50,903 nt of DNA from Saprospiraceae bacterium (GTDB lineage: Bacteria > Bacteroidota > Bacteroidia > Chitinophagales > Saprospiraceae), in the NCBI GenBank assembly GCA_046314415.1, contig JBKBWT010000001.1:1160-52062 (forward strand). Reading direction: 5' to 3'. The notes under the pieces are model-generated. The model was not told where the DNA came from, searched no databases, and saw only the letters and a program-made list of their open reading frames with translations. Every line of letters begins with the position of its first letter. Position 1 is the first letter of the stretch. Positions 11,101-50,903 of the stretch are shown here, piece after piece. Position numbers and translations under genes: made by a program.

Positions 11101-11163
11101 TTGCAATTGGCAAATCGCTCCTTCATTTTTGCTATTCACTTCTGGCAATTTTCCATTCATTAA

Positions 11164-11457: not shown

Positions 11458-11646
11458 TCACACTTGTCCGCGTAGCAATCACAGGATGATTTACCGGAAT
11501 TACAAAGCGTCATTCACTTGTCAAAACGCGTGGTTCTGGATTTTTTTAATCCTGGTTATTGGGAGAAATCCGGTGGGCAGGAATAAAAGCAAGCAAGTTT
11601 TTTGTAGATTTAACGTTTGTATAGTCGCAATTAATCAATACTGCCG

Positions 11647-12300
11647 ATGGCTTGGGGAAAGCCTTTTTTATACAGCTTGTTGCTAGCTTTGCTAGGGTAC
11701 GCTTTATGGTTCATAGAGCTTCATTACTGGATTGGCGGAGCCGATTTTGAATGGTTATCGTACGCGCAATATTCGATCTTCGTCATTGCAGCGCTGGTGG
11801 TGCTCGCTTATTTGTTGCCCTTGCGGTTGCTGGCAGACAAACCGTTGAATCATTTGGCGAAAGCCGGTGTGGAATTGTACTTCGTGGTATTGGCGGCGTA
11901 CTTTCTGGAAAAGCTGATTTTACTCACGCTGTTTACACAATTCTACGGCTTTTTAGATCGCGACTGGTTGCTTGTTTTACAAGTACTGGTGCTGGTAATG
12001 ACTTCCATGTCGTTTTATTTTATTACGCAACGCTGGCTGAAGCCTTTGCGGTGGCAACAGACTTTGGTGTTTCTGCTGGCGCTGTTATTGCCTTACCCCT
12101 TGAGTTTATTGACCCTGCGCTTACTGGCAAATCCAAGCGGGGAGTTTTCTTTCCTGGAGGCGACCCGACAAGGTTATCCGTTCTTTTGGATTATTTTATT
12201 AATGGGTATTGCGGGCATCTTTGCCATTCAGCATTTCAAAAAAGGCGTGGTAACGGCCACATCGGAAGATATTTTGGACGACCTGGGCGATGAAGAATAG
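11647..12300 (+). CDS. hypothetical polytopic membrane protein
   Basis: 217-aa ORF with an ATG start, about 6 hydrophobic segments and an acidic tail DILDDLGDEE. I recognise no family. Confidence 0.6.
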   Translation: MAWGKPFLYSLLLALLGYALWFIELHYWIGGADFEWLSYAQYSIFVIAALVVLAYLLPLRLLADKPLNHLAKAGVELYFVVLAAYFLEKLILLTLFTQFYGFLDRDWLLVLQVLVLVMTSMSFYFITQRWLKPLRWQQTLVFLLALLLPYPLSLLTLRLLANPSGEFSFLEATRQGYPFFWIILLMGIAGIFAIQHFKKGVVTATSEDILDDLGDEE

Positions 12301-18496: not shown

Positions 18497-20302
18497 TTAT
18501 TCCAATGCATAAATTAATGCGACATAAGACGCAATGCACACATTTCCAATAAGTTGCTCGTTCGGTTTCACATCTCCGGCTTGAAAACCCAGGAATTCTT
18601 TATCGTATTTTTTATCATCACTGTTGAATAACAATTTCCAGGTGCCCGGCGCAGGAAATGGAATATTGAATGATTCATGGCTGCGATCGCGGAAATTCAA
18701 AATCACGACGATTCGATCCGACTGATCTGCTTTACTCCAGCGGGTATAAGCAATGATTTTTTCTTCGTAATCCAAGTGCAGCACTTGCGTAAATTGTCCG
18801 GTCAAGCCTGGTGTTTTACCATCCAAATTGCGACGCAGCCGAATCAAATCGCGGAATAATTGGAAAATACCGCGAAATTCTTTCAAGCGATTCCAATCAA
18901 TTGGGTCTGTATCCGAAAACCATTTATCTTCTAATAATGGCTGCCCTTGAAACACCATCGGAATACCCGGCGCGGTCATCATCAGCGCGGCACCCAGCAC
19001 GGTGCGCTTTTTGGCATAGTAATTATTGACATTGCCATTCGAGATTTCTTCCGGGAGACGCGCTTTGCCATTGGCAACCTCATCGTGCGATTCGGTGTAA
19101 ATCACGCGCTGGAAAGCGTCGTTGTTATAAGTGCGCATTAAAGCATGCCGAACTTTTTCCATATCCCGGTCGCCATCATAAATCACCGTCAACACATCGC
19201 GCACCGGATGCACAAAGTCAGCGTCCCACTGGGTCGTATAGCCGCAGCCGCCTGCTGCTACTTCCCTGGTAATAAAATCCATGCCGTGCAAATCCTCCGC
19301 AATTGTAATTTTATCAGGATATTTAGCAGCAATTTCACCGTTAATCCAGCGAATCAACTCATAGCCTTCCTTTAAATCATTCGACGGATTTTCATCGGCA
19401 TATACATTACGAATATAAGGCGTCATATCCATGCGCAAGCCGTCGCAGTGGCACTCTTCGAGCCACATCATGGCATTATCCCGAATGTATTGGCGCACTT
19501 CCGACCGACCATAGTCAGGACGCGTATGTCCCCAAGGCGTTTGCGCACGCCAGTCGTTGTAAAAATAAATGCCACCTAGGTTATTCTCCTGCCAACCATC
19601 AAATTGCCACAAATCTAAGTCACTGGGACCGAAGTGATTATACACTACATCCATGATGACGCCGATGCCAAAGCGATGACAGGCTTTGACAAAGTCTTTG
19701 AATGCATTGGGACCACCGTAAGTCGATTCAATCGCAAAAGGCAGGGCAGGATTATAACCCCAGGACAAATCCCCGGCAAATTCTGCCGCCGGCATTACTT
19801 CTACTGCATTGATTCCCAGCTTTTTAAGATAAGGCAAACGCTCTATGGCTGTACAGAAAGTACCCATTTTGCCGTTGCCGGGCGCATTGAAAGTGCCTAC
19901 GTGCAATTCATATATAACTAATTCATTGTGAGGCGGTAAGGTAAAGCTATCCCCTTCCCAGTTGAAGGCGTTCGGATCATAAATAATGGAGTTGCCCGCA
20001 GAATGCGTCACTGCACGGGCGTACGGGTCGTTGCGGCGCAAGCGCCGATTATCCTGAGTTATAATTAAATATTTATATTCATCTCCCGGCTTGGCTTTGG
20101 CTACATTCCCACTCCAATAACCATTATTTTCTTTATGTAAAGTGCTGGCTTTGCGCTCATTCCATTGATTAAAGCTGCCGATCACCCTTACTTCGCGGGC
20201 ATTAGGCGCCCACACCCTAAAGTGAACACCCTTGGCGTGGGGCATAGCGCCCATTCCCGCCATTTTAATGGGTTTAGTAAAATATTGTAAGATCGGTTTC
20301 AC
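18497..20302 (-). CDS. GH13 alpha-amylase family enzyme with an N-terminal CBM48-like domain (glycogen branching enzyme-like)
   Basis: 601-aa ORF. The N-terminus has VHFRVWAPNAREVRVIGSFNQWN. The GH13 conserved regions GVIMDVVYNHF, CDGLRMDM, IAEDLHG and YTESHDEVANGK are present. The track start is GTG, and an in-frame ATG alternative lies 13 codons downstream. Confidence 0.85.
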   Translation of the reverse strand: MKPILQYFTKPIKMAGMGAMPHAKGVHFRVWAPNAREVRVIGSFNQWNERKASTLHKENNGYWSGNVAKAKPGDEYKYLIITQDNRRLRRNDPYARAVTHSAGNSIIYDPNAFNWEGDSFTLPPHNELVIYELHVGTFNAPGNGKMGTFCTAIERLPYLKKLGINAVEVMPAAEFAGDLSWGYNPALPFAIESTYGGPNAFKDFVKACHRFGIGVIMDVVYNHFGPSDLDLWQFDGWQENNLGGIYFYNDWRAQTPWGHTRPDYGRSEVRQYIRDNAMMWLEECHCDGLRMDMTPYIRNVYADENPSNDLKEGYELIRWINGEIAAKYPDKITIAEDLHGMDFITREVAAGGCGYTTQWDADFVHPVRDVLTVIYDGDRDMEKVRHALMRTYNNDAFQRVIYTESHDEVANGKARLPEEISNGNVNNYYAKKRTVLGAALMMTAPGIPMVFQGQPLLEDKWFSDTDPIDWNRLKEFRGIFQLFRDLIRLRRNLDGKTPGLTGQFTQVLHLDYEEKIIAYTRWSKADQSDRIVVILNFRDRSHESFNIPFPAPGTWKLLFNSDDKKYDKEFLGFQAGDVKPNEQLIGNVCIASYVALIYALE

Positions 20303-27883: not shown

Positions 27884-29194
27884 ATGCAAAAAAAAAATAG
27901 TACGATGCCAATACACCGAGGAACGCCTAAAGTAAGATTTAACCTTCAACCGGCTAAGGCTGGAGCCACTCAATACATTATCCTGTTTTTCCATTATCCG
28001 TATCGAGGGGAAACCGTCCGTTTTCGCTTTTCGACAGGTTATCGGGTGGATCCGAAGCATTGGTCAAAAGATACACAGCGCGTAAAGTTTACCAGGGCGT
28101 TACCAGAATGCCAGGAAATAAACAACCGGCTGAACGAACTGGAAAACCACACTATTGCAATTTGGGAGGAAAACAAAAAGAATCCTATTCACCCGGAAGA
28201 TTTCCGGCAGGAGCTTATCTATAAAATGGGCTGGTTATTCCGACCGGAAGAAACCAAACAAACCCCTACCCTTTTCCAGTTTATCGAAGTATTCATTCAG
28301 CAAGAGCAAGCCAAAGCCAACGCAGAGCGGGGAACCTGGAAAAAATACCTTACGACCTTCAACCACTTAAAAGCATTCGCCAAAGACACCGGGAAGCCAG
28401 TAGATTACCAAGACATTAATTGGCAATTTCGCCACGCCTTTTCAGAATGGTGTTTCGCAGCGCCGCGCAAACACTCCGCCAACACAGTAAATAAAAGCCT
28501 GGACACTATCCGCAAATTTATGCGGGAAGCACTCAAAGCTGGCTACCACAGCAACAGCATTTTTGAGCAAAAAGGATTTTCGATAAAGCGGGTAAAGGTC
28601 AGGAATAAAGTGAGGTTAGATCGGAACGAACTGCAAACCCTTTTGGAGCTTGATTTTTCACACACGCCGCGCCTGGAGCGCGTACGCGATCTTTTCATCG
28701 TAGGCGCTTATTCTGGACAGCGGTATAGTGATTGGAATCAGATCAACCGGGAAAGCGTGTTTGTGAATGAAAAAGGCAAAGAAATGGTGAAAGTTATGAC
28801 CACCAAAACGCGCAAACAGGTAATTATTCCGGTGCTGCCTGAGCTTAAAAAAGTGCTGGAAAAATACGAGTACCAACTCCCTGAATTGGCAATCCAAAAC
28901 TTTAACACCTGGCTGAAAGAAGTCTTTGAAATTGCCTTTGCCGATGCTAAGTTTTTGCGGATTTACAGCGAAGGCGGCAACACCAAAAGCGAAATTATAG
29001 AAAAATGGAAGAAAGCATCTTCCCACGCTGCCCGGCGCTCGTTTGTCTCTAATTTCTTGTTATTAGGCATTCCAGCAAAGTTAATTATGCAGATCACCGG
29101 ACACGCCACAGAAAAGCAGCTATACGAGTACGCAGATATTGAGCCGGAAGAAATTGCAGAGAAGTTCCTCAATGAAGTAGAGGCGAGAAAGTAA
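27884..29194 (+). CDS. int: site-specific tyrosine recombinase (phage integrase family, Bacteroidota type with N-terminal arm-binding domain)
   Basis: 436-aa ORF. The catalytic signature is present: GQRYSD (Arg), SHAARRSF (H-x-x-R) and TGHATEKQLYEYADI (His...Tyr). Confidence 0.92.
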   Translation: MQKKNSTMPIHRGTPKVRFNLQPAKAGATQYIILFFHYPYRGETVRFRFSTGYRVDPKHWSKDTQRVKFTRALPECQEINNRLNELENHTIAIWEENKKNPIHPEDFRQELIYKMGWLFRPEETKQTPTLFQFIEVFIQQEQAKANAERGTWKKYLTTFNHLKAFAKDTGKPVDYQDINWQFRHAFSEWCFAAPRKHSANTVNKSLDTIRKFMREALKAGYHSNSIFEQKGFSIKRVKVRNKVRLDRNELQTLLELDFSHTPRLERVRDLFIVGAYSGQRYSDWNQINRESVFVNEKGKEMVKVMTTKTRKQVIIPVLPELKKVLEKYEYQLPELAIQNFNTWLKEVFEIAFADAKFLRIYSEGGNTKSEIIEKWKKASSHAARRSFVSNFLLLGIPAKLIMQITGHATEKQLYEYADIEPEEIAEKFLNEVEARK

Positions 29195-32302: not shown

Positions 32303-32622
32303 TGGAAAACCCATTTGAAATACTTTCACAGAAATTAGATCAGGTGTTAACGGAGCTTTCAGAGCTTAAAACGAAGCACCAGGAGCCACCGGCAGCGCCT
32401 ACACCGGCGCCACCGGCATTAGAGCCTGAAAAGCGATTTTACAAGGTAAAAGAAGCTGCTTTTATTTTAAGTTGTTCAGCCGGTACGATTCGCGGGTACA
32501 TCAGAACGGGGAAATTGAAAGCTATAAAGAATGGGCGAGGCATAAACGGAACAGTACGAATAGAAAACACTGAAATTGAGCGATTTATCCAATCTATGAA
32601 ACAAAAAAAGGTTGACCTATGA
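32302..32622 (+). CDS. excisionase-type helix-turn-helix DNA-binding protein
   Basis: FYKVKEAAFILSCSAGTIRGYIRTGKLKAIKNG...VRIENTEIERFI matches the same HTH pattern. The start overlaps the previous stop (TAATG). Confidence 0.7.
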   Translation: MENPFEILSQKLDQVLTELSELKTKHQEPPAAPTPAPPALEPEKRFYKVKEAAFILSCSAGTIRGYIRTGKLKAIKNGRGINGTVRIENTEIERFIQSMKQKKVDL

Positions 32623-33968
32623 CAGCCAAACCTTCTAAACGAAATTTTACGAATAATACGGGCAAAGATAACGGGTTATTGCCTGAAAATCAAGCGGAAA
32701 CGAAAAAAGTTGTCGTTATTCCTGCTGGTGCAGATGCAAACGAGCCAACCAGACAGGAACAAGCGGATTCAGAACAAAGCGAAGGCAAGTTAGACCCACG
32801 TTTAAAAAACCTGGAGGACAAACTCCGCAAAAAGTGGACTTTCCGGTATAATTCTGTTACTTGCTCAACGGAAATTCAAAATGGCAAAAAATGGACTCGC
32901 TTAGATGATTTTACCCTGCATTCAATTGTAAGAGAATTAAGAAAAGAAGGCGTTGCACTTGCCAGTAAAACCCGCGTTGCTGAATTGCTAGAAAGTGATT
33001 TTTGCAAGAAGGTAAATCCAATTGAACAATATTTTGAGAACCTCCCAAAACCTGGCAACCGTGACTACATTTTAGACCTGGCAAAAACCGTAATGCCAAC
33101 AGATGATTATACTATTGAAACCTTTTACAAATTTTTCAAAAAATGGTTGGTTGGCGCTGTTGCCAACGTCTTTATAAAAGATCGATGTGCAAACCAGGTT
33201 TGTTTTATTCTTTCCGGGAAACAAGGCGCTTTTAAATCTACCTGGATTCGCAATTTATGCCCTCCAGCGCTGGAGCCGTACTACATTGAAGGCGGTTTAG
33301 ACCCCGATGATAAAGACAGCATTGCCGCCACTACATCAAATTTCATATTCAATTTAGATGACTACTTCGCGGGAATCACTTCGCGTAAGATCAACGAATT
33401 CAAAGGGTTATTAACAAAAAATACGGTCAAGATACGCCGACCGTATGCCCGTTATTCCGAGGAAATGCCCAAAATCTGTTCGTTCATTGCGTCATCCAAC
33501 GAACAAACATTCCTCCATGATCCGACCGGCAACCGGCGCTTTTTGCCTTTTGAGGTGCAAGCGATTGACATTGAAGCCGCTAAGAAGATAGATATTAATT
33601 CAGTTTGGGCGAAGGCTTACCAGGAATATAAAGCAGGCTTTGAATATTGGCTGACTAAAGATGACCAAACAGAATTGGAAAGACATAATACCAGGTTTGA
33701 AGTTCAAAGTTCTGAGTATGAGTTATTAGTGCAATGCTTTAGAAAGCCGGAAACCGGGGAAAAAGGTATAATGCTTACCACGCAAAACGTCATTGATAGA
33801 ATAAAGGAAAACCTTGGTACTTCTATGACATTTTCCCAAAAGAAGATAGGAGAGGCGCTGCGAAAAGCAGGCTTCGAGCGGAAATCTTGCAGAGTTGGAG
33901 GAAAAGCGCCGGTTTATGCCTGGGAAGTAATGACAGTTGAAATGCCAGACATAGAAGGCGAAAAATAA
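32619..33968 (+). CDS. VirE-family (virulence-associated protein E-like) P-loop NTPase, replication helicase/primase-associated
   Basis: 449-aa ORF. It has a Walker-A-like LSGKQGAFKSTW, then FNLDDY...EFKGLLT...IRRPYARY...ICSFIASSNEQTFLHDPTGNRRFLPFEV, which matches the VirE (PF05272) pattern. It has an ATGA start/stop overlap with the upstream ORF. Confidence 0.85.
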   Translation: MTAKPSKRNFTNNTGKDNGLLPENQAETKKVVVIPAGADANEPTRQEQADSEQSEGKLDPRLKNLEDKLRKKWTFRYNSVTCSTEIQNGKKWTRLDDFTLHSIVRELRKEGVALASKTRVAELLESDFCKKVNPIEQYFENLPKPGNRDYILDLAKTVMPTDDYTIETFYKFFKKWLVGAVANVFIKDRCANQVCFILSGKQGAFKSTWIRNLCPPALEPYYIEGGLDPDDKDSIAATTSNFIFNLDDYFAGITSRKINEFKGLLTKNTVKIRRPYARYSEEMPKICSFIASSNEQTFLHDPTGNRRFLPFEVQAIDIEAAKKIDINSVWAKAYQEYKAGFEYWLTKDDQTELERHNTRFEVQSSEYELLVQCFRKPETGEKGIMLTTQNVIDRIKENLGTSMTFSQKKIGEALRKAGFERKSCRVGGKAPVYAWEVMTVEMPDIEGEK

Positions 33969-34235: not shown

Positions 34236-35282
34236 ATGGAATCAGTTTTGAATGTGAATGTAAGTTGTTTTGCCAACTACACCAGCGCAGACAACCCGCG
34301 CCCGGTGAACCTTTTGCGCTGGCTGACTTCCGATAAATACCGCGCCGAAGTAGAAGCGATCCGCCAAACCAGCGACAAAGCCGACCGTGACCGATTAAAG
34401 GCAAAATTACCAGCTATCACACCGAGCGGACTATTTACACGCCGGGAAGCTGGCTGTTTGGTGCAACATTCCGGTTTACTCCAGTTTGATATTGACTTCA
34501 AAGAAAACCAGCACATTGCCAATTTTCCAGACCTCAAAAAGCAGCTGTGCAATATCAAAAACGTGGCTTATTGCGGGTTATCCGTTTCCGGCGCTGGCTA
34601 CTGGGGTTTGATACCCATATCGGAGCCACAGCGCCATAAAGAACACTTTGAAGCCTTGCGCCAATACTTTGCCGACCTTGGGGTAATGCTTGACGATAAG
34701 CCCAAAAACGTGGCTTCTTTGCGTGGCTATTCCTACGACCCGGAAGGATATTTCAACCACAGCGCCACGCCTTACCGGCAGTATATCCAAGCGGAGCCGG
34801 AACGATACGAGCGCCGATCAGCGCCACAGCCGCGCCCACAGTCCACAGAAGCGGAAAAGGTAGAGGCGATCCTTTCACAGATCAATGCAGGACGCATAGA
34901 TATTACCGGCAGCTATGGCGATTGGTTTGCAATCGGGTGCGCCCTGGCTAATACCTTTGGCGAAGCTGGCAGGGATTACTTTCACCAGCTGAGCCAATAT
35001 CACAGCGAGTATAGCTATAAGAACACAGACCGGCAGTTTGACCACTGCAAGCGAGGCAAGGGAGGCAAAAGCATTGCCACACTATACGAGATTGCAGAAC
35101 GGTACGGCGTACTTTACCGCAATGGATTGAGCGCCGCTCCAGCGCCACCACAGCGCCACCAGGCAGCAAAAAGAAACGCATTGCCACCAGGTCACACGGT
35201 AAAGCAGTTCACTAGCGTGCTGACTGGTGTATCCTTCGACCTGGAGTTAGACGCGCACGGCATACCGGCAATGTGGCGGTGA
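34236..35282 (+). CDS. primase-like protein (BT4734-like/VirE_N N-terminal domain plus PriCT-type C-terminal domain)
   Basis: 348-aa ORF. The N-terminal part KAKLPAITPSGLFTRREAGCLVQHSGLLQFDIDF matches the BT4734-like pattern. GSYGDWFAIGCALANTFGEAGRDYFHQLSQYHSEY resembles the primase C-terminal (PriCT) motif. Confidence 0.7.
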   Translation: MESVLNVNVSCFANYTSADNPRPVNLLRWLTSDKYRAEVEAIRQTSDKADRDRLKAKLPAITPSGLFTRREAGCLVQHSGLLQFDIDFKENQHIANFPDLKKQLCNIKNVAYCGLSVSGAGYWGLIPISEPQRHKEHFEALRQYFADLGVMLDDKPKNVASLRGYSYDPEGYFNHSATPYRQYIQAEPERYERRSAPQPRPQSTEAEKVEAILSQINAGRIDITGSYGDWFAIGCALANTFGEAGRDYFHQLSQYHSEYSYKNTDRQFDHCKRGKGGKSIATLYEIAERYGVLYRNGLSAAPAPPQRHQAAKRNALPPGHTVKQFTSVLTGVSFDLELDAHGIPAMWR

Positions 35283-37273: not shown

Positions 37274-37320
37274 CGGAAAAGAAAAAGCCTAAAACATTGA
37301 CAAACAATGAATTAGGCTTT
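37274..37320 (-). terminator. terminator of the tRNA-Met gene (island-borne)
   Basis: On the minus strand, AAAGCCTAA ... TTAGGCTTT forms a 9-bp stem followed by TTCTTTTCC, directly downstream of the tRNA 3' end. Confidence 0.55.
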
Positions 37321-37328
37321 GTTTTTCG

Positions 37329-37401
<73 letters not shown>

Positions 37402-37613
37402 ATGTTAAACCACTCTCTCCAACAGGGTATTTTGCTTTTTAGTTCAAAAGAGTCCCCTGTTTTTTAAATGGTTTGCAAAGATAAGTACTTTTCTTAACTT
37501 TGTCAAGTCCTTCCTTAATTAAATATCGCCTAAGCTACCTTTTCGGGTGAAAATACCTGAAATTGCTAGATTTTTATTATCTTCCAACTCAAAGTTTACA
37601 CCTAAATTCCCTT

Positions 37614-40007
37614 ATGCGCTTCTATCTACTTAGCATTTTACTGTGCTTAGTCCATGGGCTGCACGCACAGGTAGTTTGTTCGCCAGAGCAAGCGGAGCTG
37701 GTTATTGAGATTATGACCGACCGCTACGGGTACGAAACTTCCTGGGAATTGACCGGGAGTTCCGGTACACGTTATAAATTTTTGCCGCCATTTAGTTATA
37801 AAAATCAGCGCTTACACCGCGATACGCTCTGCCTGCCAGCAAATGACTGCTTCGCTTTTACAATTTATGATGTATTTGGTGATGGCATTGATGCACCGGG
37901 TTATTATTTGGTGCGCTTAAATGGTGATACGCTCCAGCGAGGCGGCATTTTTTATAAAGAAGAATCTTTATATTTAAATTGCCCATCAGGAATGGTTTGT
38001 GCAGTAGCAACGTCCATCACGCCCGGCACTTACACCGCAGCTTTCGATGATACCTGGTACGAGTTTATCCCTGATACGTCAGGAATTTATCGGATCTCAA
38101 CCCGAAATTTAAATACCTGCGACACTAAAATCTGGGTATATACTACTTGTGATGGCATTACCATTGCCGAGGACAATCAAAGTACGGTTTTTTATAATGA
38201 CAATGCGACCGCGCAAACGCCACAGGCAGAAGTCCGTGGCTTTTTTACGGCGGGCAAAACGTATCGGATTCGCATGGGCGATCATAATAATGCCTGCCGC
38301 GATAGTATTCGCTGGAATTTGACTTTTGAAGGTCCGCTGCGCGGCTGCACCAATCCTAATGCTTGTAACTACAATCCATTGGCAACAATTAACGATGGCT
38401 CCTGTTTGCTGCCGGGCGACCGCCGTTGCCCGAAAGGTCCTGATTTGCTGATTCGTCAGGATACGTTGCTACAATCGATTCGCCTGGATACCATTCATTC
38501 CGAAGACCTCTGCCTGATTCAGGAAGGCTGTGTACGCGGCTATGGGGTACGTAATGTTTTACGCTTTACAACACAAATACATAATATTGGCGAACGCGAT
38601 TATTATATTGGTAAACCAAATTATAATAACAATCAATTTACCTGGAATAATTGTCATAATCACTTTCATTATGATAATTATGCCGAATATTTAGTCATCG
38701 ACGAATCTGGTAAAAAAATGCCCATTGGCTTCAAAAGTGGCTTATGTATTACTGATTTTGGTTGCGAGCCTGGCTATAATCCAAAGTACAGTTGTGATAA
38801 TATGGGCATCAGCGCACATTGCTTTGATGCGTACTGGTCGGCGCTCAAGTGCCAATGGATTGACATAACTGATTTACCTGATGGGAGATACACATTAGTA
38901 GTACGCATCAATTGGAAAAATAGTCCCGATGCGTTAGGGCAAGTGGAAAAAGATTTGGATAATAATATCGCCCAGGTCTGTATTCGCTTAGACCGGAGTT
39001 CAGGCACCTTGAAATGCACCGTCGAGCAACCCTGTGATCCTTACCTCGATTGCGCGGGTATTCCTTTCGGCGAAACACAGCCCGATTGCCTGGGCATTTG
39101 CGGGGGTAAACGTTTATCGGGCGACGCGAATGAAAATGGACTACAGGAAATCGCCGACGCCGAGCAATACATCACGCTGCTGCTCGGTAATGACATCGAA
39201 CCCAATGCTTGTAATGATTTGAATGGTGATAGCGTCATCACGGTACAAGATGCAGTGCTGCTGGCTAGTTGCCTCAATTTTGGCGCGGCGCATCCACACG
39301 AAGGTGCCGGAATACACAATCACTGTCAGTTTCCCGTTGCCAATTTATTTAATACAAAAGATACTGTTACACTTGGCATTATGGGCGTAAACTGGGAGGA
39401 GCGTTACGTAGATATTGGGATTTTAAATCATACAACCAATATTACAGCCTATCAGTTTCGCCTTACGGGTGGCAGCATTAGCCACGTAGAAAGTCTGGTC
39501 GATGCTGCCACTTATCCGGTTACGCTGCGCACAAATATGAGCGAAGGTATGGTGATTGGCTTGTCCTATCGGGATTCGGTCATTCACAAATCAGAATTAA
39601 TGCAGCCGCTTTGTAGAATACATTTTTTTAATTTAAATCTATACACTATTGTAATTCAGGATATTATCTCAATTGTAAATAACAATTATGAACGCGTAGC
39701 CAATGCAATTATAAATGGCATTGCCGTAAAATCCACCACAACTCACATTAACAATATAAACAATATTATACAAGTACAAGTACGTCCAAATCCAATACAT
39801 GACGAAGCGCAGTTTGCTTTTTATAGCATTCAAAATCAGTATTTTACATTAGAAATTGTTGACTTAAACGGAAAGATCGTTCGACAATATGTCAACCTGC
39901 GTCCACCTGGTATCCGCATCAAGCGGGATGATCTGCCCGCCGGTATTTATTTTTATAAACTCATTGGGGAACGCAGCTATACTGCCGGTAAGTTTATTAT
40001 TCAATGA
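37614..40007 (+). CDS. secreted multidomain protein: lysyl-oxidase-like catalytic domain + dockerin + T9SS type A C-terminal sorting domain
   Basis: The track ORF starts at TTG 37563. The ATG at 37614 gives the signal peptide MRFYLLSILLCLVHGLHAQ. The LOX motifs CHNHFHY, KSGLCITD and CQWIDITD are present. Dockerin loops are DANENGLQEIAD and DLNGDSVITVQD. The C-terminus is ...RPNPIHDEAQFAF...LEIVDLNGKIV...LPAGIYFYKLIGE...GKFIIQ (Por secretion tail type). Confidence 0.85.
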   Translation: MRFYLLSILLCLVHGLHAQVVCSPEQAELVIEIMTDRYGYETSWELTGSSGTRYKFLPPFSYKNQRLHRDTLCLPANDCFAFTIYDVFGDGIDAPGYYLVRLNGDTLQRGGIFYKEESLYLNCPSGMVCAVATSITPGTYTAAFDDTWYEFIPDTSGIYRISTRNLNTCDTKIWVYTTCDGITIAEDNQSTVFYNDNATAQTPQAEVRGFFTAGKTYRIRMGDHNNACRDSIRWNLTFEGPLRGCTNPNACNYNPLATINDGSCLLPGDRRCPKGPDLLIRQDTLLQSIRLDTIHSEDLCLIQEGCVRGYGVRNVLRFTTQIHNIGERDYYIGKPNYNNNQFTWNNCHNHFHYDNYAEYLVIDESGKKMPIGFKSGLCITDFGCEPGYNPKYSCDNMGISAHCFDAYWSALKCQWIDITDLPDGRYTLVVRINWKNSPDALGQVEKDLDNNIAQVCIRLDRSSGTLKCTVEQPCDPYLDCAGIPFGETQPDCLGICGGKRLSGDANENGLQEIADAEQYITLLLGNDIEPNACNDLNGDSVITVQDAVLLASCLNFGAAHPHEGAGIHNHCQFPVANLFNTKDTVTLGIMGVNWEERYVDIGILNHTTNITAYQFRLTGGSISHVESLVDAATYPVTLRTNMSEGMVIGLSYRDSVIHKSELMQPLCRIHFFNLNLYTIVIQDIISIVNNNYERVANAIINGIAVKSTTTHINNINNIIQVQVRPNPIHDEAQFAFYSIQNQYFTLEIVDLNGKIVRQYVNLRPPGIRIKRDDLPAGIYFYKLIGERSYTAGKFIIQ

Positions 40008-43972: not shown

Positions 43973-44890
43973 TTACTGATTCGCACGCTGGTTTGTTGGA
44001 TTCTTTTTAACTAAATTAAATAACAAACTGATTTCGTGCGAGCCACTATTAAATTTCTGGAAACGCTGGAACGACATATCATAAGAATACAATACATTGA
44101 AATTAGAGATTTTTGCGCCCAGCAAAATGCCCAATGCCCCCAAGGAGCGGTACGATACACCGGTAATTAGCTGATCTTCCAGGAAAGTAGCCTTCAGGTT
44201 GATGTCCACCTGCGCCGGGGCATCTTTTACGCGCCGGGCCATAATGGAAGGTTCCAGCGAAAAATTCAAATCATAAATATCAAAGCGATGTGCCAGAAAC
44301 AAGGTATAATGTTGTAAGGCAGATTCATCGGTGCTTTCTACTACATCATCCAGGCGGCTTTGAATCAAATTGGCAAAGGACAAACCGAAGCGGGTATTGT
44401 CGCGAATACTACCAAACACACCGATAGAAGCATCAAATTCATTGACACCATTCATGTAATCGTTAATCACATTATCCCCCTCATCCACTCTGCCAAAATC
44501 AGCATTATTATCGAGTCTTAATTGTTGATAGAATGCGGAGAAACCAGCCGACATTTTCACGTATTCACTCAAATTAAAGCGGAAAGCCCAGTTGAGTTGC
44601 CCTTTGAGGCGAGTAAGTTGCGCAGCGGTTTCAGCGGAAACACCTACCCCTATACCAAAATTCTTACCGACCGGGCTATTGAGCATGGCACTAACCGTCT
44701 GTGGAGCATCCGCAAAACCAGTCCACTGCGCGCGCCCGTTCATTTGTAACTGAAAAGTGTTGTTAAAGCCAGCGGCTGCCGGGTTGATGAGAATTGGAGT
44801 AATATGATAATGCGTGAAAATGGCTTCATCTTGTGCCCGTACCACTTGCCAGACAGCGAAAAAAGATATGAGTAGAAGTAATTTTTTCAT
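43973..44890 (-). CDS. type IX secretion system membrane protein, PorP/SprF family
   Basis: 305-aa ORF with a signal peptide, then QDEAIFTHYHITPILINPAAAGF..., the characteristic PorP/SprF N-terminus, and beta-barrel-like composition. It lies immediately downstream of a type B CTD gene. Confidence 0.88.
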   Translation of the reverse strand: MKKLLLLISFFAVWQVVRAQDEAIFTHYHITPILINPAAAGFNNTFQLQMNGRAQWTGFADAPQTVSAMLNSPVGKNFGIGVGVSAETAAQLTRLKGQLNWAFRFNLSEYVKMSAGFSAFYQQLRLDNNADFGRVDEGDNVINDYMNGVNEFDASIGVFGSIRDNTRFGLSFANLIQSRLDDVVESTDESALQHYTLFLAHRFDIYDLNFSLEPSIMARRVKDAPAQVDINLKATFLEDQLITGVSYRSLGALGILLGAKISNFNVLYSYDMSFQRFQKFNSGSHEISLLFNLVKKNPTNQRANQ

Positions 44891-45010: not shown

Positions 45011-48000
45011 TTATTTTCCGCGCAGAATCGTGAGCGAACCTTTTTGCTGTACCAGGTTGCCATCCTTATTGGTGTATTCCAATACAAAGTAATAAGGTCC
45101 ATCCGGCAGTGGGTCGCCACTCTGTGTGGTGCCTTCCCAACCAGATTGATAGTTATCTGCCTGGAATACCAGTTGTCCCCAGCGGTTGTAAATTTCCAGA
45201 TGGTTTTCGGCACTTTCATTACAAGTCACTCTAAAGTCTTCATTAGCGCCGTCTCCTTCCGGTGTAATAATTACTTTATCAACCAAACAGTCAGGATTAC
45301 CCGATTCACCAACAATGCCAGTGGCACTTGGCGCAGTACATCCCCGACTATCGGTCACGGCTACCATATAAGTACCTGCACATAATCCATCAATCATAGC
45401 ATCGCTGCTCATCGGCGCATTCCAGCGGAAAGTATAAGGAGTTGAACCACCTTCCACTACCGCAAGTGCCGAACCATTACAGCCATCTGTAGCCGGTTGT
45501 GTTTCTACTTTAACTTGAATTGGTTTAGGCTCAGCTAATGTAAATGAAGCGGTCACTTTACAATTATTGCCATCCGTAGCTACCACCTGGTAGGTACCAG
45601 GTCCACGATTCAACAAGAATGGACCAGCCTCCTGAGGCGTTGTATTCCATACAAAACTATAAGGTTTGCCAACTGCTCCACCAACTGCGTTTAGTACAAT
45701 TCTACCGTCGGTTCTACCTGCACAGGAAATCTGTTGAATATTGGCAACCACCTGAATCGAATCCGGCGGCACCACATTGATTTGCTTGGTAACCGTACAA
45801 CCAATTGCATCGGTCACCGCAACTTGATAAGCTCCGGCACCTACGCCATTCAATACAGGTGTAGTACCTAATACCGTAGTGCCACGACGCCATTGATAGG
45901 AGTAGTTGCCACTACCACTTTTGCCAGTCGCCTCGATGATACCATCGGTTGAAGTCGGGCAACTAATATCCGAACCATTGTAATCAGAAATCACTTCGAC
46001 ATCTGCATTCAAATTTGAATTGGAGCCAATGGTAAATTGTTTGGTCAAGGTATTACCCGACTGCTCCGTAACGCTCACCGTATAAACACCAGGTGCTACA
46101 TTTTTCAAGGTATCAGCAGTAGAAATTACCGTACCGGCAGCATTCCGCCAGGAATAACCATAAGGTTTGGTGCCTCCGGTAATACTCAATGCAATCACGC
46201 CGGTAGTATCCTGCGGACAAGCGGTGGCAACCGCAGCGCCATTGGCACGGAAAGTTGTCACCGGAATAGCAGGGAAGGTTTGCCGACAGCCATTCGCATC
46301 CTGTACGGTTGCAATAAAATTACCTTCGCAAAGATTGATAATCTGCGTGTTATTGCCGGTATTCGGTGTATTCCATTGTACACTGTAGGGTTGCTTACCT
46401 CCGGAGAAGGTAACACTAATGCTACCCGTACAACCTGACTCTTCGGTATCATGTTTTACCACACTGGCGACTTGAATAGGTGCCGGCTGTGGTACATCAA
46501 CACTGTCGCGTAATATGGTACCGAGATCATCGGTGATGGTATAAACCAACTTGCCACCGCTCAGATTATTCTTGTTTACAGTACCATTGTTATTTGACAA
46601 TGTCGTATTATCACTAAATGCAATGTTATAAGGAGCACGCCCGCCGTTAATCTGGAAGGACAGCGTACCGTCATTGTTGCCTGCACAAGTTACCCCTGTG
46701 ATCTGGCGATTGGCAGTTGAAAGCGGAATATTTTGCTCTGTCACATTGTAACAGCCACTATTCGTACAGCCGCGACTGTCAGTTACGGTTACACAGTATT
46801 CGTCCTTCCGCAAATTCGCCAAAGTATCCTTGGTAGAATTATCTTCCCATCTGATGGTATAAGGACCTGTACCCCCACTGATTGCCAGCACGATTCGACC
46901 ATTTGAACCACCCACACTTGCCTGCGTAATCTGCGCATTGAGTACAATCGGTGGATATTTGGTAATTTCAAAGCTGGAAGTATTGGTTCCTCCTTGACTA
47001 TCTGTAATCGTGACGGTATAAGTACCGGCTGCTACGTTATTTAAGTTTTGCGTGGTTGCACCATTGCTCCAACGGAAAGAATAAGGCGATGCTCCTCCGC
47101 TAACAGTCAGTATCACTGAACCAGTGGTCGTGCCATCACAAATACGATTTGCCTGTCCGGTTACGTTCAACGGTGCAGTAATACTTGCGCAGCGTGTAGC
47201 CGTACAATTCTGTGCATCCGTCACCGTCACACAATACTGGCCCGGCGTAGTCAAACCACTGAGGTCTTTTTGCGTAGAAGTATAATTATTGGGACCCGCC
47301 CAAGCGTAAGTATAAGTACCGGTGCCACCCGTTACCGTTATTGCAATAGCGCCATTGGTACCTTGTTGATTGATATTGGTAGGAACCATATTGCTAACCT
47401 GCACAGTTGATTGCGAAGCAACGTTCAAATTAGTGAGTGCAAACGTACAGCTCCGCGCATCCGTGATGGTAACAGCGTAAGTACCAACTGCCAGATTACT
47501 CTGTGAAGCAACATTGTCGGGCAACGAACCACTCCAGTTATACTGATATGGGCTCGTACCTCCAGATACATTTAAAGTAATGCCACCTGAATTAGCCGCA
47601 GCGCCGCAGGCGATATTGGTAATGTTGGAAGTTGCATTCAACGCGGCAGCTGGTTGGTTGACGTTATAAGTGCCGGTAACTGTCAAAGAAGTCGTTGCAT
47701 CTGTCACCGTTACTGAATACGTACCCGCCGGAATATTGGTCAAATCCTGCGTGGTCGCATTATTACTCCATCGATAGGTAAAATTACCAGAACCACCCTG
47801 TGGGGTAATATTGATAGCGCCCGTCGATTGCCCAAAACAGTTCACCCCTGTGATAGCAGGCACTGCCAGGGTCGGAGCAGCAGGTCCACTGCTACCAATG
47901 GTAACAGTTCCATTTTTAGTAGAGAAAGGCTCCGCTTCCTCATCTATATTATCCACCCCCATTGGTGCGGTAGGCGTTCCGGTAAAACTCAATGCAGCGG

Positions 48001-49735
48001 TTGTACCATTGGCACCAATTGCATTGAAGCAAAGTTGAAAAATGACGCTGCCATTCGGACGATCCACCCCAGCTACTGCATTGTCAAACCAAACCATTGT
48101 AACTAAACCTGCTGTTGTGGGTGGAGCACTGGTAGGTGTACCAAACTGCGCCACGGTCAAATCAGGTAAACCAAATTGCCCAACGGACACAAATTGTAAT
48201 CTGGTTGCATCATATTGTATGCCTAAGGTTATACCAATAATGTCGTTCATATTATCAACCGTCACATCCACACAAACCTGCTGCCCCGACTGAACGGTTT
48301 TATCAGAGATGGAAAATCTTAACTGCCCAGGCTGAGGGTCGCCTCCACCGCCCGTACCCACGGTCACCGTACCATTCTTGCTACTGAAAGTAACAAATTG
48401 AGAATTACCATTTACGATTTCAATTGGCGTGGGACTGGCTACAAAATTTACACTGGAGCTACCAGTAGTCATCAAAATTTTGAAGCATACCTGAAAAATA
48501 TTGGTTCCGTCCGGTATGGTCACGCCTTGAACCGCCGGGTCACTCCACGACACGGTGATCCTACCTCTTGGAACTGCACCTGAACCGGGCAATCCAAAAG
48601 AATTGATGTCTAATCCACTTAGATTAAAGCTGCCGACAGAAACGAATTGTAATTTGGTGGTATCATATTGCAAACTGAATTGCATGAATAGAATGTCGTT
48701 GTACCCCTGTGCGGTTACATCCAAACAAACATTGGTGCCGCTTGGGGCAGTCTTATCAGCGAGGCTTAGTCTGAATGTATTCGTATTACCACCGCCTGAA
48801 GTAATAGATACGGTACCATTTTGACCATTGAATGTTACGGCGCTTCCACCACCTTTGGTCACTACCTGTGCCTGTGGAGCGTTGGTAAAACCTACTACGG
48901 CGTCTCCGGTTGCGGTTGCGGTAAAACAAACCTGATAAATTACGGTGCCATTTGGTCGGCTTACGCCGGCTGCGGTTGCAGGTGTATTCGTCCAGTTAAC
49001 AGTGATTCTACCTTTTGGAACACCGGTGGTGCCTGGTAATCCAAAAGCAGCATTTGTCAAGCCTGCCAAATTAAAGCTACCTACGGAAACAAATTGCAGG
49101 CGGGTTGTATCATATTGTAAGGTATATCTGGTTGTACCAATACTGTCGAAACCCTCGGTCGTAACATCCACACATACCTGCTGCCCCTGGGTTACACTTT
49201 TATTAGAAGCAATGAGTTTGAACGGTGTTGCAGCACTGCCATTTATGGTTACATTACCGGCTTGCCCATTGAAGGTTAAAGAGGATCCCCCAGCATTGAA
49301 AACATCTGGTGGGGTGGGTGTATTACTAAATTCGACTTTTGTAGTATTAGCGGAGTTTAATACATTGAAACACACTTCAAAAATAGTTGTACCGTCGGGG
49401 CGTGTTAACCCGGCAAATGTTTTTTCGTCCCACAATACGGTAATTTTACCTTGTGGAACATTACCTGAGCCGGGAAGACCGAAGCTGCTTGCTTCAGTAA
49501 GATCAGGTAGATTTAAATTTTTAACGGATGCAAATTGAAGTGCGGAGGGGTCATAGCTAATAGAGAATTGAAAACCTAGAATCTGATTGAATCCACTTAC
49601 CTTTATGGGCAAACAAATTTGTTGCCCTCGGTTAGCGGTAGTACTTCCAACACTGAAAGTGACAGTCTGAGCTGCCGCATAGCTGGCGCAAAATAGCAAC
49701 AGTACTGCTATAAAAGGTGTAATGAATCTCTTCAT
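45011..49735 (-). CDS. 1574-aa T9SS type B cargo: 4 tandem cohesin-like modules + 11 SprB-type repeats + gliding-motility-associated (CHU_C) C-terminal domain
   Basis: Signal peptide ...CASYAAAQ. Four ~145-aa modules have the pattern G..vC.(d/p)v.v.gf..i.g.qf.lqYD...LqFvSvg.f.l... (nt 47891-49669). SprB repeats such as CFGQSTGAINITPQGGSGNFTYRWSN follow. The C-terminus is ITPEGDGANEDF...IYNRWGQLVF...GWEG...GPYYFVL...GSLTILRGK. Confidence 0.9.
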   Translation of the reverse strand: MKRFITPFIAVLLLFCASYAAAQTVTFSVGSTTANRGQQICLPIKVSGFNQILGFQFSISYDPSALQFASVKNLNLPDLTEASSFGLPGSGNVPQGKITVLWDEKTFAGLTRPDGTTIFEVCFNVLNSANTTKVEFSNTPTPPDVFNAGGSSLTFNGQAGNVTINGSAATPFKLIASNKSVTQGQQVCVDVTTEGFDSIGTTRYTLQYDTTRLQFVSVGSFNLAGLTNAAFGLPGTTGVPKGRITVNWTNTPATAAGVSRPNGTVIYQVCFTATATGDAVVGFTNAPQAQVVTKGGGSAVTFNGQNGTVSITSGGGNTNTFRLSLADKTAPSGTNVCLDVTAQGYNDILFMQFSLQYDTTKLQFVSVGSFNLSGLDINSFGLPGSGAVPRGRITVSWSDPAVQGVTIPDGTNIFQVCFKILMTTGSSSVNFVASPTPIEIVNGNSQFVTFSSKNGTVTVGTGGGGDPQPGQLRFSISDKTVQSGQQVCVDVTVDNMNDIIGITLGIQYDATRLQFVSVGQFGLPDLTVAQFGTPTSAPPTTAGLVTMVWFDNAVAGVDRPNGSVIFQLCFNAIGANGTTAALSFTGTPTAPMGVDNIDEEAEPFSTKNGTVTIGSSGPAAPTLAVPAITGVNCFGQSTGAINITPQGGSGNFTYRWSNNATTQDLTNIPAGTYSVTVTDATTSLTVTGTYNVNQPAAALNATSNITNIACGAAANSGGITLNVSGGTSPYQYNWSGSLPDNVASQSNLAVGTYAVTITDARSCTFALTNLNVASQSTVQVSNMVPTNINQQGTNGAIAITVTGGTGTYTYAWAGPNNYTSTQKDLSGLTTPGQYCVTVTDAQNCTATRCASITAPLNVTGQANRICDGTTTGSVILTVSGGASPYSFRWSNGATTQNLNNVAAGTYTVTITDSQGGTNTSSFEITKYPPIVLNAQITQASVGGSNGRIVLAISGGTGPYTIRWEDNSTKDTLANLRKDEYCVTVTDSRGCTNSGCYNVTEQNIPLSTANRQITGVTCAGNNDGTLSFQINGGRAPYNIAFSDNTTLSNNNGTVNKNNLSGGKLVYTITDDLGTILRDSVDVPQPAPIQVASVVKHDTEESGCTGSISVTFSGGKQPYSVQWNTPNTGNNTQIINLCEGNFIATVQDANGCRQTFPAIPVTTFRANGAAVATACPQDTTGVIALSITGGTKPYGYSWRNAAGTVISTADTLKNVAPGVYTVSVTEQSGNTLTKQFTIGSNSNLNADVEVISDYNGSDISCPTSTDGIIEATGKSGSGNYSYQWRRGTTVLGTTPVLNGVGAGAYQVAVTDAIGCTVTKQINVVPPDSIQVVANIQQISCAGRTDGRIVLNAVGGAVGKPYSFVWNTTPQEAGPFLLNRGPGTYQVVATDGNNCKVTASFTLAEPKPIQVKVETQPATDGCNGSALAVVEGGSTPYTFRWNAPMSSDAMIDGLCAGTYMVAVTDSRGCTAPSATGIVGESGNPDCLVDKVIITPEGDGANEDFRVTCNESAENHLEIYNRWGQLVFQADNYQSGWEGTTQSGDPLPDGPYYFVLEYTNKDGNLVQQKGSLTILRGK

Positions 49736-49789: not shown

Positions 49790-50593
49790 TTACAGAAAAA
49801 TCAATTTTTGTGTAATAACAAAATCAGGTGATACGAGTAAATATTGATATGCTCCCGGAACCGGAAACATCTCTTTCGTCAGTCGCAATGTATGTAAGCC
49901 ACTTGCCATGAATCGCTGTTCTTCGTGAATCGTCTGTCCTTGTGTATTTTGAATCAGAAGTCGGACTTGCGATGCCGCCTTCAGTTCAAGTTTTACCTGT
50001 GTAAACTCATGAAAAGGATTGGGATAACTGTCTTCGACCTGTACAAGGTGAGGTGCACTATTGTACACATGCGTACTGGTCGCAGCATCTACTCTTACTG
50101 CACCATCTAAATACTTTGCGTCCACTTCGTTCAGGCTGGAATCAGCAATTTCGCGGAGTGCAATATCATCAGTGAAAGATAAGGGACTAATAGCTGCAGG
50201 AGTGCCAATTACCTCGAAATTGATAGAAAAGAGTGTAGTGCTATCATCCAGGCTGCGTCCTTGCAGGGATTCATCATACCACTGGAAAGCTAACATACCA
50301 TCAGCGGTTTTTTGTAATCCGAAACTTTCAACCTGAGGGTTGAGCGATAATGTAAAGTCTCTCACCTCTTTAAAGCGGAGTACGTTGGTATTCCATTTCA
50401 CGGTAAATTGTACGCCGACGATCTTTTTGAAATGAGCTACTTTAATATTAGCCTTATAAATAGTAGATGGGGGTACTATTGCAGTAGGTGCGATAATGGT
50501 AGGTAAAGTCTGTGCTTGTAATGCAAACACTATAGAAAAGCACAAAACACAGGAGAGTATAGCGCTTCCTATCTTTTTCATGGGATCAAACAT
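49790..50593 (-). CDS. secreted protein with one cohesin-like module and a T9SS type A C-terminal sorting domain
   Basis: 267-aa ORF; the start may be the ATG at 50581 (MKKIGSAILSCVLCFSIVFALQAQ). The module reads KANIKVAHFKKIVGVQFTVKWNTNVLRFKEVRDF...MLAFQWYD...TLFSINFEVIG. The C-terminus is YPNPFHEFTQVKLELKAASQVRLLIQNTQGQTI...GAYQYLLVSPDFVITQKLIFL. Confidence 0.75.
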   Translation of the reverse strand: MFDPMKKIGSAILSCVLCFSIVFALQAQTLPTIIAPTAIVPPSTIYKANIKVAHFKKIVGVQFTVKWNTNVLRFKEVRDFTLSLNPQVESFGLQKTADGMLAFQWYDESLQGRSLDDSTTLFSINFEVIGTPAAISPLSFTDDIALREIADSSLNEVDAKYLDGAVRVDAATSTHVYNSAPHLVQVEDSYPNPFHEFTQVKLELKAASQVRLLIQNTQGQTIHEEQRFMASGLHTLRLTKEMFPVPGAYQYLLVSPDFVITQKLIFL

Positions 50594-50679: not shown

Positions 50680-50718
50680 GGTAAAATACAAAGAGGAGTG
50701 ACTCCTAAGAGCCACTCC
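50680..50718 (-). terminator. possible terminator after the partial upstream T9SS cargo gene
   Basis: On the minus strand, a GGAGTG ... CACTCC stem is followed by TCTTTGTATTTT. Confidence 0.4.
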
Positions 50719-50736
50719 CCATTTGTATGGTTTTTA

Positions 50737-50903
50737 TTATTCTACAACGACCATTTTCTTGGTAGCGTTGAATTCACCAGCCTGGAGGGTGTAGGTCAGC
50801 ACACCGGTAGGCAGGTCAGCTGAGTTCAGGATTACCTGGTTGTAACCCTTCACATAGGAACCTCTCACCAGTTTCACGACTTTACCCGTGATATCCGAGA
50901 TCG
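50737..50903 (-). CDS. C-terminal 55 codons of a T9SS type A CTD-bearing protein (the gene enters from the right window edge)
   Basis: My own translation is ISDITGKVVKLVRGSYVKGYNQVILNSADLPTGVLTYTLQAGEFNATKKMVVVE followed by a stop (TAA at 50739-50737). This fits the Por secretion tail pattern. It is not in the ORF track because it is truncated. Confidence 0.7.
   Translation of the reverse strand, partial: ISDITGKVVKLVRGSYVKGYNQVILNSADLPTGVLTYTLQAGEFNATKKMVVVE

Follow-up and report, generated by a model that had tools for sequence, protein, structure and literature searches.

A 50,903-nucleotide (nt) stretch of contig JBKBWT010000001.1 from a Saprospiraceae bacterium (GenBank assembly GCA_046314415.1), referred to below as the window, carries on its reverse strand (positions 45011..49735) an open reading frame (ORF) whose translation is a 1574-amino-acid (aa) protein that begins with four cohesin modules and ends with a type IX secretion system (T9SS) sorting domain. 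In the translation, read directly, residues 1 to 22 (MKRFITPFIAVLLLFCASYAAA, followed by Gln23; 49670..49735) form a signal peptide with a basic N terminus, a hydrophobic core, and an A-A-A motif ahead of Gln23, all of these traits being recognized by eye; in the homologs, the first module likewise begins right after an ...AQ motif. The remainder of the protein, encoded on the same strand, comprises cohesin module 1 (residues 23 to 166; 49238..49669), module 2 (residues 169 to 314; 48794..49231), module 3 (residues 319 to 462; 48350..48781), and module 4 (residues 470 to 616; 47888..48328), which are followed by 11 SprB repeats (Pfam PF13573; residues ~617 to 1480; 45296..47887) and a T9SS C-terminal domain (CTD) of type B (PF13585 and TIGR04131; residues 1489 to 1574 and the stop codon; 45011..45271).

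Assignment of these domains relied on the gathering cutoffs of the respective models, which are 24.1 bits for Cohesin (PF00963), 27 for PF13585, 35 for TIGR04131, 23 for TIGR04183, 90.55 for TIGR03519, and 22.9 for Dockerin_1. In a Pfam scan of the whole protein, the Cohesin model matched four stretches with a total of 122.9 bits (E = 1.4e-35), and each of the four modules, when scanned singly, scored above the Cohesin cutoff: 54.9 bits (E = 1.4e-14) for module 1 and 26.6, 41.9, and 38.8 bits for modules 2, 3, and 4, respectively. The SprB model matched 11 stretches, also above the Pfam cutoff, with 185 bits for the whole protein and 217 bits for its C-terminal part scanned singly, and the CTD was recognized both as CHU_C (PF13585, 74.3 bits) in Pfam and as a type B sorting domain (TIGR04131, 47.5 bits) in NCBIfam. 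The Pfam scan of the 1574-aa protein revealed no carbohydrate-binding module (CBM), no SLH domain, and no dockerin. The modules, ~145 aa long, are 38 to 47% identical to each other over ~143 aligned residues, which marks them as a genuine internal repeat, and the scores of the individual modules, too, rule out a fortuitous repeat or one due to low complexity. The preliminary description of this DNA had placed four tandem cohesin-like modules at residues 23 to 615, with 11 SprB repeats and then a type B CTD behind them, in a Bacteroidota host, and had called for verification with profile searches. Its coordinates proved exact (residues 23 and 615 correspond to nt 49669 and 47891, respectively), the four module starts that it quoted were all found, with the LQF[AV]SV motif at residues 66, 213, 362, and 513, and the order of domains that it proposed is the one returned by Pfam and NCBIfam. 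The nearest genome belongs to an uncultured Saprospiraceae bacterium, in line with the proposed host. The domain architecture of the protein and its identity as a type B cargo of the T9SS can be regarded as nearly certain.

The AlphaFold2 model of module 1, the one module that was modeled, has a mean pLDDT of 97.1 and a pTM of 0.90 and is all-β except for one short helix, according to DSSP. In a Foldseek search of the PDB with this model, all 50 of the 50 matches listed were cohesins, on whose nine-stranded β-sandwich (jelly-roll) fold the model thus superposes; this rules out a generic Ig or CBM β-sandwich, the outcome that the preliminary description had named as contradicting its assignment. 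The top matches were type I cohesins, with TM scores of 0.77 to 0.80, compared with 0.62 to 0.69 for the type II cohesins. The best one was CohA2 from Clostridium acetobutylicum (6kgf; E = 1.4e-11, TM 0.79), and other top matches included Coh6 of Acetivibrio cellulolyticus ScaB (5nrm), C. thermocellum OlpA (3ul4), C. cellulolyticum CipC (2vn6), and 4dh2; the noncellulosomal cohesin from Archaeoglobus (2xdh) was also matched, with a TM score of 0.73. Most of the matched PDB entries, among those listed, are cohesin-dockerin complexes. Identity to the solved cohesins in the Foldseek alignments was just 12 to 22%, and a phmmer search of PDB sequences with the cohesin region returned weak matches (E values from 0.005 to 0.06) to cohesins labeled as type II (3l8q, 4u3s, and 5k39). 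Type II and type III cohesins are elaborated with an α-helix between strands 6 and 7 and with β-flaps in strands 4 and 8. In the DSSP assignment of the module 1 model, no helix is present between the strands at residues 75 to 81 and 94 to 103, which were assigned as strands 6 and 7. For module 1, the structural comparison with the known cohesin types that had been proposed for every module came out in favor of a cohesin, with type I being the closest (TM ~0.8). The four modules are real cohesins, by their profile scores and, in the case of module 1, by the predicted fold, and appear to be type-I-like.

The combination of domains found in the 1574-aa protein is widespread. From 18 homologs, 48 homologous modules were taken, of which 37 were combined with the five cohesin modules encoded in the window (the fifth is described below) into an alignment of 42 rows, designated A1. 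The profile built from A1, when searched against 1.84 billion cluster representatives, matched 14277 proteins at E values of ≤1e-3 and 1659 proteins at E values of ≤1e-30. Domain architectures were counted, using purpose-built hidden Markov models for the SprB units and the type B and type A CTDs, in the 148 best-matching representatives of 50%-identity clusters that were listed in, and new to, the A1 profile search. These proteins contain from 4 to 13 cohesins each; in 140 of the 148, the cohesin block starts ahead of residue 60, and in 112 of the 119 that carry SprB repeats, all such repeats come after the last cohesin. The complete order, from the cohesin block through SprB to the type B CTD, was seen in 104 of the 148 representatives, 101 of which had no type A match. 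Pfam scans of three sampled representatives confirmed the presence of four Cohesin domains, SprB, and CHU_C. Wherever the source of these cohesin-SprB-type B CTD relatives names an organism, it belongs to the Saprospiraceae, so the family appears to be large and centered on this lineage. The relatives bear only automatically assigned names, such as “gliding motility-associated-like protein,” and some have been auto-annotated as cohesin containing. A different case is P0149, a protein of 1760 aa that gives eight matches to the cohesin-module profile and ends with a type A CTD; in Pfam, it shows eight Cu-binding_MopE motifs and no Cohesin domain at E values of ≤1e-4.

The A1 alignment reveals two prominent cysteine residues, one in the ..QVC.. 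motif of strand 2 and the other in the F.VCF motif of strand 7, which correspond to residues 41 and 122 in module 1 and have equivalents in modules 2 to 4 of the 1574-aa protein. Among the 784 modules of the 148 representative proteins, 652 contain both cysteines, 129 contain neither, and 3 contain one. In the canonical cohesin topology, with sheets 8-3-6-5 and 9-1-2-7-4, strands 2 and 7 are adjacent. Given that the two cysteines covary and that the strands carrying them are neighbors, the pair (Cys41-Cys122 in module 1) suggests a cross-strand disulfide, which would fit folding of the modules in the periplasm ahead of their export by the T9SS. Classical cohesins are not known to have such a disulfide. 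From their sequences, the modules look like a separate cohesin subfamily that bears the cysteine pair.

Additional evidence comes from conservation of the individual modules. Seven related loci from other genomes were compared (L001 to L007), four of which (L001, L002, L005, and L006) represent one conserved locus, with a shared asparaginase and a shared response regulator, and L007 represents a second, separate gene arrangement. The nearest genome, and the sole close one in the scan, is the Saprospiraceae metagenome-assembled genome (MAG; CAZFBN01) that contains L004, where the orthologous protein has 1571 aa and is 75.7% identical to the 1574-aa protein overall. Modules 1, 3, and 4 are 91%, 85%, and 91% identical, respectively, to their positional counterparts in this ortholog, compared with 72% for the SprB region, and the nonmatching pairs of modules are 35 to 51% identical, indicating orthology by position. 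Module 2, at 53 to 54% identity to its positional counterpart, is the fast-evolving one; its low identity could reflect either fast divergence or replacement of the module at that position. In a homolog that is 54% identical to the 1574-aa protein, the matching modules 1 to 4 are 61, 45, 60, and 53% identical, respectively; positional orthology still holds there for modules 1, 3, and 4, and module 2 is closer to module 3. At greater divergence, the positional pattern is lost. Because spacers that can replace one another have little reason to retain positional identity, these values are read as a sign that the module positions carry position-specific functions, and the combination of positionwise conservation with the mutual identity of 38 to 47% hints at different partners for different modules.

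Immediately next to the 1574-aa gene, 120 nt downstream, the window encodes a PorP/SprF-family outer membrane protein (43973..44890, reverse strand; 178.5 bits for PF11751 and 189.1 bits for TIGR03519). An annotated PorP_SprF gene is located directly 3' of the cohesin-SprB-CHU_C gene in L001, L002/L003, L005, L006, and L007, and the same position in L004 is occupied by an ORF of 303 aa that shares 84% identity with the PorP/SprF protein of the window. SprF is a binding partner of SprB, as PorP is of the type B protein PG1035, and surface anchoring of type B CTD proteins via such PorP-like partners has been proposed (Gorasia et al. 2022, PMC9143113). The observed gene adjacency fits this published anchoring model, and the PorP/SprF protein encoded in the window is likely the cognate anchor and secretion partner of the 1574-aa protein, which, by analogy with the SprB-SprF and PG1035-PorP pairs, we infer to be anchored at the cell surface.

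The same arrangement brings up the main rival to a scaffold function, namely, that the 1574-aa protein is an adhesin. It would then be an SprB-like filament, maybe carried by the gliding machinery, and its cohesin tips would bind to a substratum, prey, an algal host, or a neighboring cell without involvement of dockerins. Indeed, the SprB repeats, the type B CTD, and the PorP/SprF partner match the architecture of Flavobacterium SprB (PMC9143113), a review describes the proteins with type B CTDs as being, for the most part, predicted adhesins (PMC11611037), and the public name of the relatives refers to gliding motility. In addition, the ligand-facing strands vary between the modules (see below) and module 2 evolves fast, as might be expected of diversifying tips. 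However, an adhesin function leaves unexplained the abundance of dockerin-type modules in the T9SS cargo of this lineage and next to these very genes, no sprC- or sprD-like gliding partners are seen adjoining the 1574-aa gene, and all the solved structures that the module model matched, among those listed, are cohesins, mostly in complex with dockerins. On balance, the adhesin reading appears unlikely, if still worth serious consideration.

On the other side of the 1574-aa gene, with a gap of 54 nt, lies a gene (49790..50593, reverse strand) for a 267-aa protein in which a signal peptide is followed by just one cohesin (33.9 bits) and by a type A CTD of the T9SS (TIGR04183, 24.2 bits). This cohesin lacks the cysteine pair. 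Counterparts of the 267-aa gene are found directly upstream of the respective genes in L004 (262 aa, 86% identity) and in L001. A pattern scan detected no strong terminator-like site between the 267-aa, 1574-aa, and PorP/SprF genes, so the three may constitute one transcription unit. The same scan found a terminator-like 12-bp hairpin with a T-run (50693..50720, reverse strand) upstream of the 267-aa gene and after the stop codon of the next upstream gene. That gene runs off the window edge: the frame translation of its 3' end (50737..50903, reverse strand) covers the last 54 aa, a type-A-CTD-like tail that ends with ...ISDITGKVVKLVRGSYVKGYNQVILNSADLPTGVLTYTLQAGEFNATKKMVVVE and a stop codon. 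The order of genes in L004, namely, a CTD-ending gene, the 262-aa single-cohesin gene, the 1571-aa gene, the 303-aa ORF, a thiolase gene, and a lysyl-oxidase-like gene, is the same as in the window. In L005 and L006, a protein of the animal heme peroxidase family (An_peroxidase) with a type A CTD is encoded upstream of the cohesin-SprB gene, at a distance of a few genes (L005:1-698 and L006:1-475, respectively); along with the lysyl-oxidase-like gene of the window, it points tentatively to a clustering of oxidative or cross-linking enzymes around such loci.

Candidate dockerin-bearing partners of the cohesins are found among the secreted proteins encoded nearby. The first one is a lysyl-oxidase-like type A cargo of the T9SS, a protein of 814 aa (37563..40007, forward strand; Lysyl_oxidase, 120.5 bits; Por_Secre_tail, 32.3 bits) encoded ~5 kb from the 1574-aa gene. 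Its residues ~517 to 575 (39111..39287, forward strand) form a dockerin-like module: the segment SGDANENGLQEIADAEQYITLLLGNDIEPNACNDLNGDSVITVQDAVLLASCL contains two loops of the D-x-N-x-[DN]-G-x6-D pattern, with a helix-like stretch after each, and scores 21.0 bits (E = 3.9e-4), slightly short of the cutoff, against the Dockerin_1 model over model positions 2 to 56 of 57. Just two homologs were found, ~42% identical overall, and both retain every loop residue; the segment is nearly unchanged in the lysyl-oxidase-like ortholog from L004. When a profile of three such segments was searched against PDB sequences up to an E value of 10, all seven of the seven chains retrieved were dockerins, the best one being 2y3n_B (E = 0.0035), aligned over both repeats. 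A dockerin-tagged bacterial lysyl oxidase is unusual in itself. Between the dockerin-like module and the CTD, this protein contains a β-rich domain; an AYQF motif seen by eye in this region (residues ~590 to 740) made a cohesin conceivable there, which was rejected in the absence of any match to Pfam or to the module profile. The sole glycoside-hydrolase-family gene seen in the window, an α-amylase-family gene at 18497..20302, carries no dockerin.

The second group of candidates is encoded in the neighborhood of the cohesin genes. The C terminus of the window-edge gene product aligns by eye with a fragment encoded upstream in L004 and with the C terminus of a 1339-aa protein from L001, in which a dockerin-like module (DENDGNGVTTYDL...AADANRSNAVTTADM...) and then a cohesin (26.2 bits) precede the terminal type A CTD. 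Similar tails, consisting of dockerin-like, cohesin, and type A CTD modules, are present in the products of the upstream genes in L005 and L006, and the gene directly upstream in L002 matches Dockerin_1 with 27 bits, above the cutoff. In L007, two downstream genes match the dockerin profile derived from this trimodular (dockerin-cohesin-CTD) tail, and precomputed Pfam data contain Dockerin_1 matches, graded as faint and weak, for two downstream genes there. The tail genes of this kind, which also encode CarboxypepD_reg-like domains, are located at L001:4978-8997, L001:19542-23228, L002:6731-9604, L005:2625-7778, and L006:3196-7671. The N-terminal parts of the tail-family proteins vary and include HYR and other domains. 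The tail was found in at least 1462 homologous clusters at 90% identity, with the 120 best matches being 47 to 65% identical over 357 residues, and the source names are mostly those of Saprospiraceae, including Phaeodactylibacter xiamenensis. In the protein P0018, two cohesins that flank a dockerin are followed by a CTD on a single polypeptide. The tail cohesins score 29 to 54 bits against the module profile, compared with >100 bits for the scaffold modules, and thus represent a distinct, more distant subgroup.

The presence of both putative partners on the same polypeptides in at least 1462 clusters raises the possibility of a self-assembling coat, in which the cohesins of the 1574-aa protein, that of the 267-aa protein, and the dockerin-cohesin tails of the cargo would interlock as daisy chains into a proteinaceous layer or sheath, and the 1574-aa protein would be one structural node among many instead of a platform that recruits enzymes. 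Lysyl oxidases, as a family, cross-link proteins. The module composition of P0018 and the dockerin-like module of the nearby lysyl-oxidase-like enzyme would also be consistent with such a coat. However, the tail cohesins belong to the more distant subgroup described above, and a coat overlaps with the scaffold explanation instead of excluding it. As a separate explanation, it can be considered improbable.

The 1574-aa protein is best explained as a noncellulosomal, T9SS-anchored multicohesin scaffold, and the term “scaffoldin-like,” used for it in the preliminary description, appears plausible. Judged from sequence data, the more specific claim that the four cohesins recruit dockerin-tagged proteins hangs in even balance. 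Several observations weigh against it. The only dockerin candidate encoded within the window stays under the Pfam gathering score (21.0 versus 22.9 bits), and the AlphaFold2 model of the C-terminal region of the lysyl-oxidase-like protein, built from 3 aligned sequences with a pLDDT of 31, gives no fold support. The adjacency of dockerin genes amounts essentially to two independent arrangements, the locus shared by L001, L002, L005, and L006 and that in L007, and the tail is so common in the lineage that some of this adjacency could be due to chance. The dockerins of the cargo tails may bind the cohesins of their own kind, within or between cargo proteins, and not those of the 1574-aa protein. 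Many noncellulosomal cohesins lack a known dockerin partner. The last two points concern the putative dockerin-binding face, strands 8-3-6-5, whose conservation among the four modules the preliminary description had proposed to check. The outcome was negative: with the strands assigned, approximately, from DSSP and the canonical cohesin topology without the use of coordinates, the mean pairwise identity of the four modules is 38% on strands 8-3-6-5 versus 49% on the other sheet, with strands 3 and 8 being the most variable. Between the close orthologs of modules 1, 3, and 4, the 8-3-6-5 strands are 89 to 95% identical, which is not clearly above the value for the other sheet. These values agree equally well with a separate partner for each module and with these strands forming no common binding site.

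The lack of a conserved binding face detected across the four modules would also be compatible with the modules being passive spacers that merely lengthen the stalk and have no specific ligand. β-Sandwich repeats, such as Ig-like domains, are common spacers in surface proteins. Nevertheless, modules 1, 3, and 4 are more conserved than the SprB stalk (85 to 91% versus 72%), and are so position by position, and the cohesin block is N terminal and distal, starting before residue 60 in almost all the representatives counted above. This explanation therefore seems very improbable.

Under the scaffold explanation, the type B CTD would hold the 1574-aa protein on the outer membrane via the PorP/SprF-like barrel encoded downstream, and the eleven SprB repeats would presumably form an extended stalk with the four divergent type-I-like cohesins, in each of which a disulfide probably staples strand 2 to strand 7, at its distal N-terminal tip. 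The cohesins would most likely serve as sockets for dockerin-tagged cargo that is secreted by the same T9SS via type A CTDs, the candidates being the lysyl-oxidase-like enzyme and the proteins with dockerin-like, cohesin, and type A CTD modules, one of which is probably encoded just upstream. Each cohesin would probably recruit a different partner, since a given module position is conserved from species to species, whereas the modules of one protein are strongly unlike each other. The 267-aa protein, with its single cohesin and type A CTD, would provide one more anchor, with a single socket, near the membrane.

Extended to the whole lineage, these predictions lead to the tentative and, at present, rather doubtful proposal that Saprospiraceae run a cohesin-dockerin assembly system on the T9SS, a Gram-negative, noncellulolytic counterpart of the cellulosome. 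In such a system, SprB-like filaments anchored by PorP/SprF proteins and equipped with 4 to 13 disulfide-stapled cohesins, each position with its own specificity, would catch T9SS cargo, such as the lysyl-oxidase-like enzyme, HYR proteins, and peroxidases, and hold it off the cell. Were the filaments to travel on the gliding machinery, as SprB does, this cargo would also move along the surface. A cellulosomal function proper is ruled out by the absence of a CBM in the protein and of glycoside hydrolase cargo in the window.

Comparison with the known systems shows the limits of the similarity to cellulosomes. Just like the scaffoldins of Firmicutes (C. thermocellum CipA, A. cellulolyticus ScaB, and C. 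acetobutylicum CipA), the 1574-aa protein has serial cohesins on one secreted polypeptide that is predicted to be cell associated, the predicted fold of module 1 superposes on their type I cohesins (TM 0.77 to 0.80), and dockerin-type modules are found on secreted proteins encoded nearby. In contrast to these scaffoldins, it has no CBM, X-module, SLH domain, sortase signal, or type II dockerin; instead, there are a T9SS type B CTD and a PorP/SprF protein, in keeping with the Gram-negative outer membrane, 11 SprB repeats after the cohesins, and the covarying cysteine pair. The candidate cargo is likewise different, consisting of lysyl-oxidase-like and HYR/CarboxypepD_reg proteins and not of glycoside hydrolases. 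In terms of sequence, the window modules are far from the solved cohesins, including those of the Firmicutes scaffoldins, with identities of only 12 to 22% and weak direct matches. The enzyme-binding cohesins of CipA are also much more alike than the window modules are to each other (38 to 47%).

The noncellulosomal modules, exemplified by the Archaeoglobus fulgidus cohesin (PDB entry 2xdh), offer another parallel, as there, too, cohesins and dockerins occur without a cellulosome and sometimes on one polypeptide; unlike them, the modules studied here form long tandem arrays (four, and up to 13 in the relatives) fused to T9SS-specific modules. Similarly to the SprB/SprF system of Flavobacterium johnsoniae, the 1574-aa protein combines SprB repeats and a type B CTD with a PorP/SprF-family gene directly downstream. 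F. johnsoniae SprB is a far larger protein (~669 kDa) encoded in the sprCDBF operon and is not known to carry cohesins, in contrast to the cohesin array at the distal end of the 1574-aa protein, next to which no sprC- or sprD-like genes were seen. Finally, the 267-aa protein resembles OlpA and OlpC of C. thermocellum (3ul4 and 4dh2) in joining one type-I-like cohesin to a surface attachment module, with a T9SS type A CTD in place of the SLH repeats.

Studies of cohesin-dockerin assembly have so far dealt almost exclusively with Gram-positive producers of cellulosomes. Cohesin- and dockerin-like modules outside cellulosomes have reportedly been described by Peer et al. in 2009. That work is cited for noncellulosomal modules by Bensoussan et al. 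(PMC6487960), who also assign dockerin-containing proteins to rumen Bacteroidetes. In full-text searches of the literature, neither the occurrence of cohesins or dockerins in Saprospiraceae nor the fusion of cohesins with SprB or T9SS modules was the subject of any paper retrieved. The individual domains are well known, and relatives of the 1574-aa protein have already been auto-annotated; what is undescribed in the searchable literature is their T9SS-anchored combination, the paired-cysteine cohesins, the specificity of the modules for their positions, and the cargo tail with a dockerin and a cohesin that recurs throughout the lineage. The present case joins arrays of genuine cohesins to a Bacteroidota-specific T9SS anchoring system, and dockerin-type modules are found on candidate co-secreted cargo. 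If these pairs bind, they would show how some of the T9SS cargo is arranged on the surface after secretion, a standing question for type B CTD proteins. The scaffoldin principle would then extend to Gram-negative bacteria and to noncellulolytic functions, and a family of >100 clusters at 50% identity would provide a large set of divergent, probably disulfide-stabilized, and possibly orthogonal cohesins for synthetic protein assembly. The idea is directly testable, as members of cultured genera are within reach: the cargo tail is encoded in P. xiamenensis, and a module-bearing relative is encoded in a Haliscomenobacter MAG.

The window also encodes a second giant type B cargo of the T9SS, a protein of 2407 aa (3806..11029, forward strand) that contains SprB repeats, CHU_C, and Ig-like domains and no cohesins. 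No obvious PorP/SprF partner follows this gene, and the ORFs at 11129..12300 have no Pfam matches. Finally, the region from ~26700 to 37400, beside a tRNA-Met gene (37328..37401, reverse strand), looks like an integrated mobile element. It encodes a tyrosine integrase (27884..29194), a VapE-like protein (32619..33968), and a PriCT-2/BT4734-like primase (34236..35282), along with several ORFs that have no Pfam match, and its GC content drops to 0.34 at 26 to 28 kb.

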